In this document: in pieces, positions 1,801-11,540 of the stretch
How the letters are laid out: each line of letters begins with the position of its first letter
Numbering within the stretch: the stretch's first letter is position 1
From: Nitrososphaerota archaeon
Lineage (GTDB): Archaea; Thermoproteota; Nitrososphaeria; Nitrososphaerales; Nitrosopumilaceae
Assembly (NCBI GenBank): GCA_028867755.1
Contig: JAGWFT010000001.1
Coordinates: forward strand, 804,727-868,726
Reading direction: 5' to 3'
DNA length: 64,000 bases
Position numbers and translations under genes: made by a program
Notes under the pieces: generated by a model
Told to the model about the DNA's origin: nothing
Databases searched by the model: none
The model's input: only the letters and a program-made list of their open reading frames with translations

Positions 1801-1942
1801 TATTGGACCATTACAATGCAAGTGATTTTAAAATTACTAATTCTCTCATAAAAGCTAAGAAAACTAGCTAAAATGATCTTACAAAAATTTGAAACCTTGT
1901 TAACACTTTGCTGGTTATATAAAAAATATGAACAGGTGTCCA

Positions 1943-2764
1943 ATGAGCAAAGAAGATGTCGAGTTTATCGGCAAGCAAGTTAAGGACATGTATGGCACTT
2001 ACATTGGTAAGGTCATAGGAACTATAACCGATATAGACGGAAGTGTACAAACCGTAGGCGTCGATTGTGGCTCCGAAGGGCTAAAGCAAGTTCCATTTGA
2101 GCAACTGGTCGTTCAGGGACAGTTCGTGATTTTCATTCCTAGATGGAGATTAGATGCCCAGAGATTGTTGCGAGAAAAGGGTCTTACATTGCGCCGAATT
2201 CGCGCGCTGATAGATATCGTATCTGAGAATGACGACATGAAGGAGGATGCTGAATTGATCCATGAGAAATACAAAATGAAGTTACTAACTCTGGATGAGA
2301 CTGAAAAACAAATCAAAGAAAAACTAGAGCATAGATTGCTAGATCTTGACAATCAGTTAAAGTCAATCAGAATGCTGAGATTTGATGCCAAATTGCAAAA
2401 TAAAAGCAATGAGATATCTGATGCCAAGTATGAATCAGTCAAAGCTCATACAGTCGAAATCATAGAACACATTGAACATGAAAAAGCAGAGATAGTTAAC
2501 ATTCAACGTCGCATCAACGATCTTTCAGTTGATAATATGGAGCGAACCGAAAGTCCAAAACAGGACGTTCATTCAGCTGCCGTTTCCTACCTTGGTAAGG
2601 CGGAAACTACTCCCTCTTCTCAACCAAAGACACCAATACCTACTGGCGTGGTAGTTGATAATACGAATCCCCAAACATCAACCCCAAAACCAGTTGCTAT
2701 TGGAGCAGATGGTGAGGAAGAACCTCAAGACTCAGACTGGCTTAAGAGGATATCATCTTCTTAA
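1943..2764 (+). CDS. cdvA: cell division protein CdvA
   Basis: N-terminal PRC-barrel-like segment (FIGKQVKDMYGTYIGKV), long coiled coil, low-complexity linker, C-terminal DWLKRI peptide. Confidence 0.9.
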   Translation: MSKEDVEFIGKQVKDMYGTYIGKVIGTITDIDGSVQTVGVDCGSEGLKQVPFEQLVVQGQFVIFIPRWRLDAQRLLREKGLTLRRIRALIDIVSENDDMKEDAELIHEKYKMKLLTLDETEKQIKEKLEHRLLDLDNQLKSIRMLRFDAKLQNKSNEISDAKYESVKAHTVEIIEHIEHEKAEIVNIQRRINDLSVDNMERTESPKQDVHSAAVSYLGKAETTPSSQPKTPIPTGVVVDNTNPQTSTPKPVAIGADGEEEPQDSDWLKRISSS

Positions 2765-4762: not shown

Positions 4763-5253
4763 ATTGAGATTATCTGTAGTTTGGAATTTGCTGTTATGTT
4801 AAATTTACTAACAAAACCTGCAGCCACCTCTAACACATATTTTGCCGGTTTGCCTCCCCCATTATCAACTGTGCATGTTGCAGTTTCAAGTGCTGATTGG
4901 CATGGTTGTACATATTTTGCAATGTGTACCACATTTCCATCGCTGTCAAACCAAATTACATCTAGAGGAAACTGCATATTTAACATCCATATGGGTATGA
5001 CTTGAGCATTATCCATGACAAAAATCATTCCTTGGTCGTACGGTAATTGATCTTGAAACATCAGTCCTCTAGTTCTCTGTGCATCAGTTTCTGCTATCTG
5101 GACATCTAGTGTTACGTTATCTATCTTCACAGTACCTTTTGGAAACTTGACCTCAGCAAGTTTGGAATCTGCAGGAATTGTTAATACTCCAACGATGCCA
5201 ATTATTACTGCTGTGATGGCTATTGGAATTAATACCTGGCCTCTTGTTGCCAC
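4759..5253 (-). CDS. DUF192 family membrane-anchored protein
   Basis: N-terminal TM; RTRGLMF, GMIFV, WMLNMQFPLDVIW, YVLEVAAG motifs. Confidence 0.9.
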   Translation of the reverse strand: MATRGQVLIPIAITAVIIGIVGVLTIPADSKLAEVKFPKGTVKIDNVTLDVQIAETDAQRTRGLMFQDQLPYDQGMIFVMDNAQVIPIWMLNMQFPLDVIWFDSDGNVVHIAKYVQPCQSALETATCTVDNGGGKPAKYVLEVAAGFVSKFNITANSKLQIISI

Positions 5254-5429
5254 AAGAGCATATTGACTACAACTAATTAAAAACTAATGGAAACCCCTGT
5301 TGTATGGAAAAACATGATAAATCTGCTAATTTGATTTATTTCTCACCTGACTGTGTTTATGATCAACAGCTGCTAAAAGTAGATGCTGCATCATTCTCAC
5401 AATGTGTCAAAAATAGATTGCAAATAATC

Positions 5430-5770
5430 GAAAGATCCATATGGATGTTTCACGGGAGACTAAGGCACCGTGCTTTTTTGTGAAGTTGTAAATATGCTTT
5501 CATTCCCTAAGATTGGGGTATCTTTTTTCTTTGAACCTCTGAATACTTTTTCACGGTCTCTAATTTTACCGTTTAATCTTTCCATCTTGTTTGATCTTCG
5601 GTTCTGTAAAAAAATTTAACAATAGAGGTTTTTTCTGCAAACTTGTTACCACAAGAAGTTCTGTATTGAACTTTTTCTTAGGTATAGGAACTGTGGTAGA
5701 AATTATGTTATCAGAAAATATACCTATTCCCCCCACTAGAATTTTTCATCCCTCGATAACCCGACAGAAC
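5430..5770 (-). mobile_element. degenerate IS relic, IS6-like (archaeal Zn-ribbon plus DDE type) transposase fragments
   Basis: Minus strand reads NKMERLNGKIRDREKVFRGSKKKDTPIL, then frameshifted GMKAY-YNFTKKHGAL (DDE C-terminus). An upstream KVQYRTSCGNKF is a decayed Zn ribbon. IS6-type terminus GGTTCTGT at 5770-5763. Confidence 0.7.
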
Positions 5771-5817
5771 CTTAGATAGAAAAGTTTTAATCATCCTAGA
5801 TAGGTAGTTGCATCGTA

Positions 5818-7095
5818 TTGAATCTGGATAGAACTTTTGCGATCTTAGTATTAACGGTGGCTTTTGTCATGATCACGCCAAGTCTTCTTATACATGCTAA
5901 TGCTTTAACCCAAATCATTCATGTTAATGAACAAACCTCAGTAACCCTTTCAGGTTTGACCTCTGCGGATCCGGATGGAGACGCACTGACTTATGCATGG
6001 CAACAAACCGATGGTCCAGCTGTAAAACTGGATAGTGCAACCAATCCTACCATAACATTTACGACACCAGCTGTTCCAGCCGGTCAAATACAGTCACTGA
6101 CTTTTCAACTCACAGTAGATGACGGTCACGGTGCATATGATCACACCACCTTGGTTGTTCTAGTACAACACGTTAATCATAATCCAATCTTAGTGATGGA
6201 CAAAGATATCACAGTTATGGAAGGATCTCCTGTAACAATATCTGGAAGTGCAACAGATCCAGATAATGACAAATTGACATACTCTTGGGGACAATTCTCT
6301 GGTACTACTATCCCATTATCCGCTACCAATAGTCCTACTTTGTCATTTACAGCACCAATGATAGACCCGAAATCAAGTGATAAACTCTTATTCCTACTCC
6401 AGGCAACAGATCCATACGGCGGGAAAGCTATAGGGCAGATCCAAGTTACAGTCCTAAGTAACCCGACACAGCTTGCAACATTATCATGTGCAGATATTAC
6501 TGCACATGCAGGTGACCAAGTAACATTGTCGCCGATTATTAGCAATCCAAGCAACGGACCATTGCCGTCATACTACTTTTCTCAAATCAGAGGCACCAAT
6601 GTAGTCTTTACATCTGATTCCTCAAATCCATCGTTTACTGTGCCGCAGCCTGTGACGACTAGAGCTACTCCAGAATACCTTGCAGGTCAATTACAGTTTG
6701 TCTTGTTTGTCAATGACGGTGTTACCTATCTTCCAGAATGTTGGTTAAATGTCAACATTGCACAACCACCACAGCAAACCAGTACTCCGCCAGTTGCAAA
6801 TGCCGGTCCAGCCGAGACTGTAGAACACAATGAATCAGTAACATTGGATGGAACAGCTAGTACAGGAGACAACTTACAATACGTGTGGACACAGACTAGC
6901 GGTGATCCAGTACACTTGATAGCGGATAAAACAGCACAACCAAACTTTGTTGCGCCTGATGTTGCTATAGGTCAGACCAAGACTTTGACATTCCAACTTA
7001 CAGTAAGTAATGACGGTGGCAGTAACAGCGATACAGTTACTATAACGGTAGAAAATCCAAACAGTGCACCAACAGCTAAAATCACTGTACAATAG
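5818..7095 (+). CDS. secreted PKD/K319L-like Ig repeat protein, four domains
   Basis: Signal peptide; repeated VTLxG...DPDxDxLTYxWxQxxG...FTAP...FxLTVxD motifs. Confidence 0.9.
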   Translation: MNLDRTFAILVLTVAFVMITPSLLIHANALTQIIHVNEQTSVTLSGLTSADPDGDALTYAWQQTDGPAVKLDSATNPTITFTTPAVPAGQIQSLTFQLTVDDGHGAYDHTTLVVLVQHVNHNPILVMDKDITVMEGSPVTISGSATDPDNDKLTYSWGQFSGTTIPLSATNSPTLSFTAPMIDPKSSDKLLFLLQATDPYGGKAIGQIQVTVLSNPTQLATLSCADITAHAGDQVTLSPIISNPSNGPLPSYYFSQIRGTNVVFTSDSSNPSFTVPQPVTTRATPEYLAGQLQFVLFVNDGVTYLPECWLNVNIAQPPQQTSTPPVANAGPAETVEHNESVTLDGTASTGDNLQYVWTQTSGDPVHLIADKTAQPNFVAPDVAIGQTKTLTFQLTVSNDGGSNSDTVTITVENPNSAPTAKITVQ

Positions 7096-7279
7096 ATTTA
7101 GCTTATTACATAACTTGTTATTCAAGTCCAAGAATATGGTGATCTACTACAATCCTTCAGATTTTTTATCATGATCTTTTTTGAATTTCACTGAGCAACC
7201 ATTACAAAGATTTGGTTTGTAATAATTTTAATTTATATGAAAAGCTTATAACCCCCCAATAACTCACTCATAAACACAC

Positions 7280-8578
7280 ATGTCGGAGAGATCTTGCATT
7301 ATTAATAAACATAGAATTTTTACTGCATGTGTTGTAATGTTCGCCGCAGCAGCATTATTTGTTCCACTTATCTCATCTCATAATATGGCGTTTGCTCAAA
7401 CAGGAGGTATCAGTAGTCCAGCTGTAGTGAACGAACAAACCCAAGTAACACTTTCAGGTGTTAATTCCTTTACCCCTGTTGCAGGAAATACTCTTGTAAA
7501 ATATTATTGGCAACAGATGTTTGGCGACCCTGTCAGTTTTCTAAACGGGGGGCAAACCATAACATTTACAACACCATCAGTTTCAGCTGGCGATACTAAA
7601 TATCTGAGGTTTGCCTTGACGGTTACAGATAACCACGGTGCGACAAGTAGTACCGCATTTAATCTTCAAGTTGTACACACTAATCACCCTCCTACCGTTG
7701 TAACTCAACATGAGCTCATAGTGACTGAATCTTCTCAAGTAAGTTTAACGGGTACTGCAACAGATCCTGACAATGATGCACTGACATACCAATGGAAGCA
7801 AATTTCAGGAAGTGCTGTAACATTATCAGCAGCAGATCAACCTGTTGCTACATTTACTGCACCATCTGTTGGCTCGCAACCGTCTACGACTTTGCAGTTT
7901 ACACTCACAGCATATGACGGCCATGGCGGACAGGGTTCTGATTCAGAAACCGTTATAGTCATGAGTAATAACTATTACAACCAGCCTTCAATTCAATGTG
8001 GACCTGTCATTGGAGGAGCGCAAGGATCTCAAGTCACTTTGCCAGCAACTGTAAGCAATCCATCTAATACTCCACTGACCTATTCGTGGAAACAGATCTC
8101 TGGTTTACCATCTCAAATATCATCAGCAGGTACATTAAACCCATCAGTAACAATTCCTAATGGCCCTGATTCTTCTGAAATTGGATTTCTGTTGACCGTC
8201 TCTGCTGGTAAGACTGTGATTGGATCTTGTGACAGCTTTGTTTATACTCAACTAGGATATTCCTTGCCACCGATTGCTAATGCTGGTCCAGATAGAACTG
8301 TAAATGGAAATGATCAAGTAACATTAGACGGCTCTAAGAGTACTGGATACGGTTATCTGTCATATTCTTGGAGACAAGTTTCAGGAGTCCAGGTAACTCT
8401 ACTTAACACAAATTCGGCCACCCCACAATTTGTTGCACCGGATGTCCCAGTTGGCAGCACGGACACACTTGTCTTTGAACTTGGTGTAAGCAACGGATAT
8501 GGAAGAGGCGCAGACCAAGTTCAAATAACAGTCATTCATCCAAACGTTCCTCCGACTGCAGTAATTACAATGAAATAA
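7280..8578 (+). CDS. secreted PKD/K319L-like Ig repeat protein, four domains; paralog of 5818..7095
   Basis: Signal peptide ending AFA; same four-domain layout; PPIANAGPDRTV motif. Confidence 0.9.
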   Translation: MSERSCIINKHRIFTACVVMFAAAALFVPLISSHNMAFAQTGGISSPAVVNEQTQVTLSGVNSFTPVAGNTLVKYYWQQMFGDPVSFLNGGQTITFTTPSVSAGDTKYLRFALTVTDNHGATSSTAFNLQVVHTNHPPTVVTQHELIVTESSQVSLTGTATDPDNDALTYQWKQISGSAVTLSAADQPVATFTAPSVGSQPSTTLQFTLTAYDGHGGQGSDSETVIVMSNNYYNQPSIQCGPVIGGAQGSQVTLPATVSNPSNTPLTYSWKQISGLPSQISSAGTLNPSVTIPNGPDSSEIGFLLTVSAGKTVIGSCDSFVYTQLGYSLPPIANAGPDRTVNGNDQVTLDGSKSTGYGYLSYSWRQVSGVQVTLLNTNSATPQFVAPDVPVGSTDTLVFELGVSNGYGRGADQVQITVIHPNVPPTAVITMK

Positions 8579-8810
8579 AGGCAACATCACAACCAAAAAT
8601 TAGCCCGAGTTTCATAAAAACAAATACTGTAAAAATTAACCAACAATCGTTTTATGGCAACATGGTGCGAATCATCCTGATGTGTGTCTATGACCTCATG
8701 ATAACGTGATACTGTATCATCTTATCTGCCTGTGGAATCTAATCTACGATTCTGAAAAATTGACGATTTCTACATGGTTAGACAAAATCAAAAAATCGTC
8801 ATATTGCGGT

Positions 8811-9155
8811 CTATCTTATCTTATCTTTAAAGTCTGAAATTCCGCTTGCAAAGTTTTTTGTCTCATGTCCAATGTCTGAAATTGTAGATCCGTTGTATAC
8901 TCTGTCCAAATACTTACCAGCTATGATCATGGGCACACCTATGAAGGTGGTAAAAGGTTCTGGTGAAAACAGCAGGATAAAGCCTATCTTTTGTATCTTC
9001 TTGCCGGGTGCAGGCGCACGTTGAAGCGAACCTAGCGCACGCGCTGTTCCGCAGTCGTCAAGGGTTCCAAGACTGGAGTACACCTCAGCCCGTCTTTTGA
9101 TGGACTCTCTCATTTTTTTAATTTTATGAATATTCTTCCTAATTCCCTCATTCAT
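8811..9155 (-). CDS. hypothetical protein with a hydrophobic hairpin
   Basis: ORF with GFILLFSPEPFTTFIGVPMIIAG segment; fills the intergenic space. Confidence 0.7.
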   Translation of the reverse strand: MNEGIRKNIHKIKKMRESIKRRAEVYSSLGTLDDCGTARALGSLQRAPAPGKKIQKIGFILLFSPEPFTTFIGVPMIIAGKYLDRVYNGSTISDIGHETKNFASGISDFKDKIR

Positions 9156-9266
9156 ACGTGTCTCAAGTTTTGAGATTTCTAGTTAAGATTCCATGCAAAA
9201 GATCAATCACAATAAGGTAAAGATTTCTGATCAAAGGATTAGGTTATATCGCTTTGAGTATAACCA

Positions 9267-9734
9267 TTGGTTTATAACATGAAAGAAAAACGTGGTGAAC
9301 GGCTAGAATCTATCAAAGAGGCCAATAAATCAGCCAAGGGAGATTATTCAAGGATGGAGGACTATCTAGAAGTAATATCAGAACTTGTAGAGCTAAAAGG
9401 ATATGCAAATACTATTGACATTTCAAGATATCTAAACGTTAGTGCCCCTTCTGTTACAAAAATGCTACAAAGACTAGATGAGAACGGCTACTTGGAATAT
9501 GAAAAGTACAAGGGAATAAACCTCACTACAAAAGGCAATGCAGTGGCAGATACGATAAGGCAGAAACATGGTATTTTACTTGAATTTTTCAAGCTGCTTG
9601 GAATAAATCATGAAATAGCAAATCAAGACGCCGAAGGAATTGAACATCATTTAAACCAACAAACTATCAGACAGCTTAGGAAATTCATTACATTTCTAAA
9701 AGAAAATCCGCAAGTTTTAGAAAATTTTCAATAG
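9267..9734 (+). CDS. DtxR/MntR family metal-dependent transcriptional regulator
   Basis: MEDYLEVI, VSAPSVTKML wHTH, AEGIEHH metal site; start could be ATG 9279. Confidence 0.93.
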   Translation: MVYNMKEKRGERLESIKEANKSAKGDYSRMEDYLEVISELVELKGYANTIDISRYLNVSAPSVTKMLQRLDENGYLEYEKYKGINLTTKGNAVADTIRQKHGILLEFFKLLGINHEIANQDAEGIEHHLNQQTIRQLRKFITFLKENPQVLENFQ

Positions 9735-11540
9735 CTAGTCACGCACCATTACTTTAATGTCATCTTTTGACATTACTGCATTAATCATCCTCTTTCCCAA
9801 AGTAGATCTTTTAGCTATGATGATCCTACCTCTTTTTCCTACCCTTGTAGATAACAGGTGTTTGTCTCTGACATAAACATCTGCATTCATGCCAGATTTG
9901 TCTTCATCTACTTCTAATATCAAATTGTTGCCAGATTCTGACATTTCAAACCATTCGTTTCTTCCATCTGATTCTGTTTTTGGTTCTACATCTATGTGTA
10001 TGCCAAGATTTTTTTCAAGCTCATTGATGGTGGAACCTCCTCGACCAATAAGTGATGGTATAGAATCTTTGTCAACTTTAACTCTTATACTATTATTGGA
10101 AAGAATCTCGATTTCTGCATTGGAATCAAATCTCTTAATTACATCTTTTATTTTTGATTCTGCGAGTCTTTCTATTCCTCCACTTTTTGCTTCCTTTGAT
10201 ATTGGTATGACAATGTTTTCCTCTCCATACGTGTAAATCTCATATTCAAGTGTATGGTTTTCAAAATTTCTTACCTCTATAACCGGTCTTGCTAAATCTT
10301 GCTCTGTCATCCCAGTAGGAACTTTAACCTTGAATTCTAACTCATATACTTTTGAGATCTGACCAGCTTTCACATAAACAACTGTATCTAAAATATGGGG
10401 GATCATGCCCAACTCCACTTTTCCTATGAAGCGTTGGATTGCATCAAGAGGCGCATTTGCATGTACAACTCCAACCATGCCAACCCCAGCAAGTCTCAAA
10501 TCAGAAAAGACTCGAAAATCATGATATCTTCTCACCTCATCAAATATTGTGTAGTCTGGTCGCACCAACAGCAATATGTCTGCAGCGTTTTCAAAACTTC
10601 CGTCAAGATGTGTATATTGCGTAATTTTTTCGTCAACCTGAAGATCTCTTGGCGACTCAAATGTCTTTACAATCTTGCCTTTCTTAGAATAAAAATCTGC
10701 AATACTTGACGCTAGTGTGCTCTTGCCAGAACCAGGTGCTCCAGCAACAAGTATTCCTTCTGCACTATCAGTTAATCTCTGCATCAGTTTCTCAGATATG
10801 TTGTATTGTTCAAGTGATAGCTTGACAAGCGGGTGCGTTATTGTAATTTCATAACTGTTAGAAAATGGAAGATGCGTTATTACAACTCTAAAGTCCCGAA
10901 ACTGAACTACCAAAGCACCTGGTTTTGAAATCTCAATAACCCCTGTCCTATTAACTCTGGAAGCTTCTAAGATCTCTGTGGTAATTTCTTCCAAGTATTC
11001 CTTTCCAAGTATTTTATCATCTAGCTCTACTAGGGAGAACACGCCTGGTTTTCCACGTTTGGCAACAGGTTTTGCTCCTTCCTTGAGATGTATACTCATT
11101 GTCTGAGCATCAAAGTATTTTTCAAATTCAAGTCCATCTACCTTGACCTGTGGTTTTGAATAACTGGTCTTCACTCCCTCTGCTTGTGCAACTAAGGCTT
11201 GTACGTAATCTGCTGTATAAAATGTGGCATTGTTCTTTTTTGCAATGTCTTTTATTATGGCATCAATTCTCCCATGTCTTGCTAATTTGATATCATCCAT
11301 GCTTGGGCGTTCCCCCTCAAATCGTAATGCAATATTGTTTTTTTGTACTAACTCACGAATCTTCTTTATTTCTTCCAAGCCAATAAACCCATAATCCTTG
11401 CTTTGTGAAGCTTGCGATTGAAGCTCATCTAAAACTGCAACAGGAATGATTATTTCACAATCTTTAAGGTTTCCAGATTCAATTAGTTTTGTTATTTCTC
11501 CATCTATTATGATACTTGTATCTACAACTATCTTTTCCAT
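9735..11540 (-). CDS. PINc/VapC family ATPase with KH domain (PINA-type Holliday junction branch-migration ATPase)
   Basis: N-terminal PIN (VDTS), Walker A GAPGSGKS, FDEVR, C-terminal KH (LIGRGG). Confidence 0.92.
   Translation of the reverse strand: MEKIVVDTSIIIDGEITKLIESGNLKDCEIIIPVAVLDELQSQASQSKDYGFIGLEEIKKIRELVQKNNIALRFEGERPSMDDIKLARHGRIDAIIKDIAKKNNATFYTADYVQALVAQAEGVKTSYSKPQVKVDGLEFEKYFDAQTMSIHLKEGAKPVAKRGKPGVFSLVELDDKILGKEYLEEITTEILEASRVNRTGVIEISKPGALVVQFRDFRVVITHLPFSNSYEITITHPLVKLSLEQYNISEKLMQRLTDSAEGILVAGAPGSGKSTLASSIADFYSKKGKIVKTFESPRDLQVDEKITQYTHLDGSFENAADILLLVRPDYTIFDEVRRYHDFRVFSDLRLAGVGMVGVVHANAPLDAIQRFIGKVELGMIPHILDTVVYVKAGQISKVYELEFKVKVPTGMTEQDLARPVIEVRNFENHTLEYEIYTYGEENIVIPISKEAKSGGIERLAESKIKDVIKRFDSNAEIEILSNNSIRVKVDKDSIPSLIGRGGSTINELEKNLGIHIDVEPKTESDGRNEWFEMSESGNNLILEVDEDKSGMNADVYVRDKHLLSTRVGKRGRIIIAKRSTLGKRMINAVMSKDDIKVMVRD

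Follow-up and report, generated by a model that had tools for sequence, protein, structure and literature searches.

In a 64,000-nt stretch (the window) of contig JAGWFT010000001.1 from an ammonia-oxidizing Nitrososphaerota archaeon of the family Nitrosopumilaceae, the analysis of two neighboring genes identified a pair of paralogous proteins, P0001 and P0002, which probably plug into one another head-to-tail; chains formed in this way would be an undescribed kind of archaeal surface fibre. The window is a part of a near-complete genome of 1.64 Mb, which belongs to the same genus as Nitrosotalea devaniterrae. Each protein comprises a signal peptide, four PKD domains (D1–D4), the first of which lacks its A strand, and a short C-terminal tail that resembles a spare A strand. 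The model suggests that the tail of one subunit may be donated to D1 of another subunit without the help of a chaperone, and we regard the case for this mechanism as evenly balanced.

P0001 and P0002 are encoded on the same strand and are 41% identical over the full length (pairwise alignment). Both are members of the K319L-like PKD family PF22352, with scores of 159.3 and 136.9 bits, respectively (gathering cut-off: 27 bits), and each contains four stretches that match the profile. The first-pass annotation, made from the DNA letters alone, had already reported two PKD paralogs at this place, and its open reading frames and tail positions are exact. The genome-wide search with PF22352 revealed eight domain matches, all of them within P0001 and P0002. 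In the alignment of these eight domains, D2 and D4 of both proteins open with a linker and an A strand (VNHNPILV, TPPVANAG, TNHPPTVV and LPPIANAG), i.e. with the motifs that had been noted before at the starts of internal domains. D1 of mature P0001 starts 8–10 alignment columns later, directly at strand A'. The Pfam profile (84 positions) is entered by both D1 sequences at positions 6–7 (position 6 in P0001) and by D2 and D4 at positions 1–5, and according to the domain-4 hidden Markov model (HMM) both D1 sequences begin at position 15 of 93. The AlphaFold2 (AF2) model of mature P0001 exhibits four β-sandwiches with a mean predicted local distance difference test (pLDDT) value of 88.7; D1 (pLDDT 85–96) has strands A' and B (residues 3–8 and 12–16 only) and no A strand, which is present in D2.

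The annotated lack of the A strand in the first mature domain was thus found in P0001 by the alignment, by the HMM and by AF2, while the case of P0002 is less clean. Its D1 is preceded by eight additional polar residues, in which there is no P-x-A-x-A pattern, and the N-termini of D1 vary among the P0002 orthologs (QTGGISSP, QTASSNNV, MSGMSTTRTSE). As read from these sequences, the missing head of P0002 is real, only less cleanly truncated than that of P0001. D3 is the most divergent of the PKD domains, and it contains a pair of Cys residues that is invariant across 58 homologs (C195/C279 in mature numbering, corresponding to C224/C308 in P0001, at window positions 6484–6489 and 6736–6741, and to C240/C317 in P0002). 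These residues probably form a disulfide bond that links the A-strand region to the F/G region, and the invariance of the pair fits an extracellular protein. Comparison of the monomer model with the PDB using Foldseek retrieved only generic titin, cadherin and contactin arrays and nothing informative.

Downstream of D4, exactly 13 residues remain in each protein, which read as a linker followed by one A strand, in agreement with the single orphan strand proposed by the first-pass annotation. In the AF2 monomer of P0001 the tail has a pLDDT below 50. In an alignment of 58 four-PKD sequences (mean column identity 54%) the tail has three invariant residues, P389, A391 and I393 (mature numbering; P418, A420 and I422 of P0001), T390 is conserved in at least 90% of sequences, and PTAxI belongs to the 4% best conserved five-residue windows (entropy in the lowest 4%). 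The i, i+2, i+4 spacing of the tail equals that of the invariant residues P296, A298 and A300 in the A strand of D4 itself. Intramolecular docking of the tail was ruled out, because the tail is disordered in both AF2 monomers, i.e. those of P0001 and of its homolog P0124. A search of the genome for other tail-bearing proteins, other K319L-like PKD proteins or an A-less anchor found none, and the regular-expression hits corresponded to spurious frames.

The typical Sec-type signal peptides suggest that both P0001 and P0002 are exported via Sec, with the likely cleavage sites listed in Table 1; an A-x-A site is also found at the corresponding place in homologs. Inspection of both sequences revealed neither a C-terminal transmembrane (TM) segment nor a PEFG-CTERM signal, as had been stated before: P0001 ends with ...PTAKITVQ and P0002 with ...PTAVITMK, and the PEFG motif, the TM helix and the basic tail that define PEFG-CTERM proteins are all missing. 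For P0001 and P0002 the possibilities of a type IV pilin (class III) signal, a twin-arginine translocation (Tat) signal, a lipobox and PEFG-CTERM were considered and rejected from the sequence. Two genuine PEFG-CTERM proteins exist elsewhere in the genome. They are adjacent exported proteins of 440 and 283 aa encoded outside the window (locus L011, G000:C24:558917-562102), which both end with the identical PEFG-CTERM sequence PEFGPIAALVLAIAIISIIAVSAKTGLRFMPKY, and one of them contains a PKD_4 domain. This pair indicates that archaeosortase-type anchoring is used in this genome for other surface proteins.

The c-region of the P0001 signal peptide (...LIHANA, 5881-5904) resembles the PKD A strand PPVANA, and the domain-4 HMM aligns the c-region of proteins P0005–P0007 (THAQAD) with A-strand positions 8–12. 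By loose analogy with type V pilins, the end of the signal peptide of an uncleaved precursor might be held in the A slot until cleavage. Alternatively, this resemblance may be a coincidence that follows from the A-x-A rule.

The homolog set comprised 120 relatives listed by the search together with proteins from related genomes, of which 124 homologs from ammonia-oxidizing archaea (AOA) were examined. All 124 end 12–20 residues past the last PKD domain, with a tail of the type P-(T/E/Q/K)-A-x-(I/A), and this fixed position of the stop codon spans the forms with four PKD domains, with seven PKD domains and with N-terminal additions. According to the domain-4 HMM, the first PKD domain of nearly every one begins at A'. 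No further domain or anchor follows the last PKD domain in any of the AOA homologs examined; together with the occurrence of the head and tail pattern throughout the AOA family this favors the earlier argument against random truncation. Two bacterial matches differ, one possessing a MYXO-CTERM signal and the other being a fragment. The family groups together the P0001 orthologs (407–435 aa, 65–91% identity in the homolog search), the P0002-type proteins, proteins of 443–492 aa with an extra N-terminal module of ~55 aa and two Cys residues, seven-PKD proteins of ~700 aa found in Nitrosopumilus and related genera, and one form of 944 aa with TSP3-like calcium-binding repeats that precede seven PKD domains. 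With P0001 as a query (E ≤ 1e-10), relatives were detected in 25 of the 61 sampled Nitrosopumilaceae genomes, representing 13 of 27 genera. For one genus, the query retrieved just one family member from each genome, a protein of 467 aa, of which P0124 was modelled with AF2 (see below). Where this query detects no second family member, as in at least one genus, the protein's own D1 would be the only A-less PKD domain available.

An exhaustive search of representative sequences with D4 and the tail retrieved 18,883 hits, including many giant arrays, and was used only as a source of background, from which 150 generic PKD-array proteins were taken. In generic arrays the first PKD domain after the signal peptide begins with a complete P-x-A-N-A-G strand (HMM positions 3–8). 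The orphan-type tail was found in one of the 150 background proteins, and this single case is an AOA-type protein with seven PKD domains (P0268). It is a metagenomic representative of 944 aa with the tail …DPVNADPTAKAGVLRK and with ~260 aa of TSP3-like D-x-D-x-D-G repeats in its N-terminal part. Open frames of 954–959 aa with PKD matches are present in genomes G026 and G050. In P0124 (a homolog encoded by a solo gene; residues 28–85, L020:5993-6166) and in the other relatives of 443–492 aa, a module of ~55 aa with two conserved Cys residues and no Pfam match precedes D1. AF2 predicts this module of P0124 as a helical hairpin (pLDDT 58–71) on a low-confidence linker. It was considered as a possible filling of the D1 slot in cis and rejected, as the hairpin provides no A strand. 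D1 of P0124 is again modelled without the A strand and its tail is disordered, which suggests that the slot is open even in the presence of the N-terminal module.

To model the complex, D1 of P0001 (mature residues 1–90) was combined with D4 and the tail (residues 290–396), each with its own alignment. Three runs yielded values of 0.76, 0.77 and 0.76 of the interaction prediction score from aligned errors (ipSAE), and the best of three controls 0.01; 58 of the 80 solved complexes and 2 of the 110 mismatched pairs attain the mark set by the tool, although these frequencies apply only approximately here, since we supplied our own alignment. At least 98% of contacts recur between the runs, and the partners have pLDDT of at least 90. 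In the modelled interface, residues 386–396 of the tail (and 355–356) run antiparallel to the B strand of D1 (13–20), and the predicted acceptor residues of D1 are 3, 5, 13–24, 69–73 and 75–83. In the model P389, A391 and I393 touch the core-facing residues 69, 71, 79, 81 and 83 of strands F and G, in the manner of a genuine PKD A strand. The model shows compatibility of the tail with D1, not binding. As for the claim of the first-pass annotation that the tail completes D1 of the next subunit, the model indeed inserts the last 11 residues and directs P, A and I towards the core, with the proviso that it may represent fold completion. Comparison of the contact positions between subfamilies is consistent with the same arrangement: the D1 domains of four-PKD proteins exhibit T81 and a hydrophobic inserted L18, paired with I393 of the tail, whereas the D1 domains of seven-PKD proteins and D4 exhibit D at position 81 and T or E at position 18, paired with A at the matching position of the strand. 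This single contrast hints, weakly, at a matched change of the tail and of the positions that it contacts.

Head-to-tail donation is the simplest reading that covers the conserved A-less head, the conserved A-like tail of fixed length that is disordered in the monomer, the lack of an anchor and the model of the complex. According to it, P0001 and P0002 would be Sec-exported rods of four PKD domains, equivalent to a tandem array "nicked" between strands A and A'. Cleavage of the signal peptide would leave D1 with an empty A slot and with exposed core residues of strands B, F and G, and the spare C-terminal A strand (P-T-A-x-I) would be flexible in the monomer. In the assembly, this tail would then lie antiparallel on the B strand of D1 of the next subunit, with P, A and I inserted into the core, and each junction between subunits would mimic an ordinary PKD–PKD junction. 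Such subunits could form homo- or heterotypic head-to-tail chains without a chaperone, usher or sortase, and the chain would resemble a continuous PKD rod with a nick after every fourth (or seventh) domain. As the part of a PKD domain that strand A covers is the half adjacent to the preceding domain, the donor would be expected to stack as in a tandem junction, and N-terminal additions would leave the chain sideways, in the middle of the domain. The broadest version of this idea, which we consider plausible but rather less than evenly balanced, is that AOA of the family Nitrosopumilaceae make a hitherto unseen class of extracellular fibres, built of rods of four or seven PKD domains that self-assemble without machinery via the C-terminal donor A strand, with the additional modules (the helical Cys hairpin and the calcium-binding TSP3-like repeats) projecting sideways at the junctions as functional decorations.

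Several observations weigh against strand donation. AF2 folds D1 confidently without strand A, and this domain may not need a partner for its stability; because strand A lies at the edge of the sheet, losing it is expected to be less destabilising than the lack of the G strand in pilins. The model of the complex is not independent of the sequence observation: the tail is similar to an A strand by descent, hence a network aware of the PKD fold may complete this fold regardless of biology, and the docking may in part be the completion of a fold that the network has learned. When the PDB was searched by sequence, human KIAA0319L was the only match and no similar solved complex was found, so anything learned would concern the intramolecular fold. 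The joined tail and head exceed the canonical A–A' segment by 4 (P0001) to 8 (P0002) residues, and the fit is not seamless. The tandem arrangement of the two genes, retained in one metagenome-assembled genome (MAG) of Nitrosotalea, is not a constant feature: in N. devaniterrae, which has the homolog CUR52704.1, the paralogs are not linked to each other, the P0002 orthologs include one in a tandem pair (P0123) and one that is unlinked (P0126), and inspection of gene neighborhoods showed one relative standing alone amid housekeeping genes. Finally, no linked gene for a chaperone, usher, sortase, anchor, cap or assembly protein was found in the window or in the loci of the relatives, where only housekeeping genes are present.

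The confident folding of D1 alone is also in keeping with a different function, in which the A-less D1 is just a stable variant and P0001 and P0002 are monomeric secreted or surface PKD adhesins or binding stalks, whose tails plug into another partner, e.g. an S-layer or membrane protein with an open β-sheet edge, and thereby anchor them to the cell non-covalently. Such a role would suit proteins that are exported and yet have no membrane anchor, and the N-terminal modules of the relatives (the helical Cys hairpin and TSP3-like repeats) suggest an N-terminal working end. We consider it unlikely, as P0001 and P0002 are the only PKD proteins of this type and the only carriers of such tails in this genome, the A-less head is conserved along with the tail in every architecture, the conserved residues of the tail follow the pattern of the PKD A strand and are placed in D1 by the model, and no candidate acceptor was identified. 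Another possibility is that strand donation is real but leads to closed, finite assemblies, such as reciprocal dimers, heterodimers of the two paralogs or small rings, instead of open filaments. This variant draws on the same evidence as strand donation in general, and the presence of two paralogs in tandem, both here and in the Nitrosotalea MAG, speaks in its favor. We find it somewhat harder still to accept: the junctions would mimic linear PKD–PKD junctions and the monomer models are extended (predicted template modelling score 0.47–0.49), so that closure of a ring would need strong bending, and heterodimers cannot be formed in those genomes in which the query found a single family member. 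The least probable explanation regards the pattern as an evolutionary remnant: an out-of-phase excision from a longer PKD array would have yielded a four-domain piece, whose tail is the stub of a linker that persists by descent and has no function. It would agree with the homology of the tail to an inter-domain linker and A strand and with the readiness of PKD arrays to duplicate and shuffle (as witnessed by the many giant arrays among the background hits), but it is disfavored by the conservation of the tail, since a disordered C-terminus that has no function would be expected to change in both sequence and length, while P, A and I are invariant at 45–91% overall identity in the four-PKD alignment and the stop codon keeps its position in all 124 homologs.

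Comparison of P0001 and P0002 with known strand-donating systems suggests a shared principle but not the defining features of chaperone-usher pili, type V pili or archaeal threads; in their logic, type V pili and the threads come closest. As in the subunits of those systems, D1 is a β-sandwich without one strand, which here is the edge strand A and not a central strand, and the terminal extension carries an alternating conserved pattern and is unstructured in the monomer. The first-pass annotation had drawn a parallel with chaperone-usher and type V pili, which is justified with respect to the principle and not with respect to membership, as no chaperone, usher, lipobox or related fold is present. 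In chaperone-usher pili (type 1 and P pili) an incomplete Ig-like fold is likewise completed by a strand of the neighbor; however, the donated strand belongs to an N-terminal extension and stands in for the central G strand, and assembly depends on a chaperone in the periplasm and an usher in the outer membrane, while P0001 and P0002 have a C-terminal donor and no linked chaperone or usher. Type V pili of Bacteroidia (FimA/Mfa1) do employ a C-terminal donor; their groove is freed by proteolytic removal of the N-terminal part of the precursor, and they assemble head-to-tail without an ATPase (PMC13655056, PMC8512630). The C-terminal donor is the only feature they have in common with P0001 and P0002: type V pilins are made as lipoprotein precursors, depend on a gingipain-type protease and exhibit the FimA-type two-domain fold, whereas P0001 and P0002 possess a Sec signal with no Cys lipobox, four PKD domains and no linked genes for anchor or tip proteins, give no match to FimA-family Pfam profiles and show no sequence relation to type V pilins.

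Among archaea, the thread protein Saci_0406 of Sulfolobus acidocaldarius is processed by signal peptidase I, lacks one strand of its β-sandwich and polymerizes by head-to-tail donor-strand complementation with no dedicated machinery known (PMC9715654). The threads differ from the architecture described here by an N-terminal donor, a single head domain and Asp-Asn isopeptide bonds (PMC9715654); they are known from Crenarchaeota and not from AOA, and they show no sequence similarity to P0001 and P0002, which cannot be counted among them. Archaeal bundling pili/TasA, cannulae (CanA) and Tat-fimbriae are extracellular polymers that are also formed by strand donation without chaperones (PMC9245690, 10.1101/2024.12.30.630787, PMC11821415, PMC12337348). 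They are built of jelly-roll or TasA-type folds with different donor strands, and none is based on PKD domains or comes from AOA. Tandem arrays of K319L-like PKD domains (PF22352), such as human KIAA0319L/AAVR (7kpn in the PDB) and the stalks of bacterial M36 peptidases, represent the same domain family and are rod-like, but the generic arrays have an intact A strand at their start, terminate with domains of other kinds or with sorting signals such as MYXO-CTERM, and carry no orphan tail. The literature searches found no donor-strand system built of PKD domains or described in AOA, as the first-pass annotation had supposed; the searches for PKD domains or donor strands in AOA returned only generic mentions.

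Table 1. Coordinates of the P0001/P0002 locus and of flanking genes discussed in the text (window positions)
Feature	Position	Strand	Remarks
CdvA cell-division protein	1928-2764	+	flanks the locus; apparently ordinary archaeal housekeeping gene
P0001 gene	5818..7095	+	425 aa, TTG start; signal peptide, four PKD domains, C-terminal orphan strand; four PF22352 matches
P0001 signal peptide	5818..5904	+	Sec-type, residues 1-29; putative cleavage between ANA and LTQ; n, h and c regions and A-x-A read from sequence
P0001 domain 1	5905..6171	+	PKD domain starting at strand A', A-strand slot vacant; domain alignment, HMM, AF2
P0001 domains 2-4	6172..7053	+	complete PKD domains; D3 divergent, with the invariant Cys pair
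P0001 tail	7054..7092 (plus stop)	+	NPNSAPTAKITVQ; orphan A strand, candidate donor strand
P0002 gene	7280..8578	+	432 aa; paralog of P0001 with identical architecture
P0002 signal peptide	7280..7396	+	residues 1-39; putative cleavage between AFA and QTG; read from sequence
P0002 domain 1	7397..7678	+	strand A' preceded by the short polar stretch QTGGISSP, which varies among orthologs; canonical A strand absent
P0002 domains 2-4	7679..8536	+	PF22352 and domain alignment
P0002 tail	8537..8575 (plus stop)	+	HPNVPPTAVITMK; orphan A strand
PIN-ATPase(T2SSE-like)-KH protein	9735-11540	-	flanks the locus; apparently ordinary archaeal housekeeping gene

The neighbors of the two genes in the window (Table 1) are of the housekeeping type and comprise genes for acetyl-CoA synthetase, a DUF192 protein, a DtxR-type repressor, the PIN-ATPase-KH protein and CdvA. 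The region upstream of P0001 (5254-5817) contains 564 nt without a convincing open reading frame, which is long for a genome of 1.6 Mb, and a terminator-like hairpin lies within it at 5505-5518. The search of positions 5200-9300 against Rfam yielded no match, and the scan for promoters and terminators around the locus was uninformative.

AOA rank among the most abundant archaea of both soils and oceans, and to our knowledge little is known about their surface structures beyond the S-layer. A fibre made of proteins from this PKD family, if it indeed exists, would be a candidate for a role in adhesion, aggregation or the building of a matrix within nitrifying communities. If true, the hypothesis would reveal a new building plan among donor-strand assemblies, in which the subunits consist of PKD domains, the donor is C-terminal, the exchanged element is the edge strand A, and the junctions between subunits copy those between domains of a tandem array.

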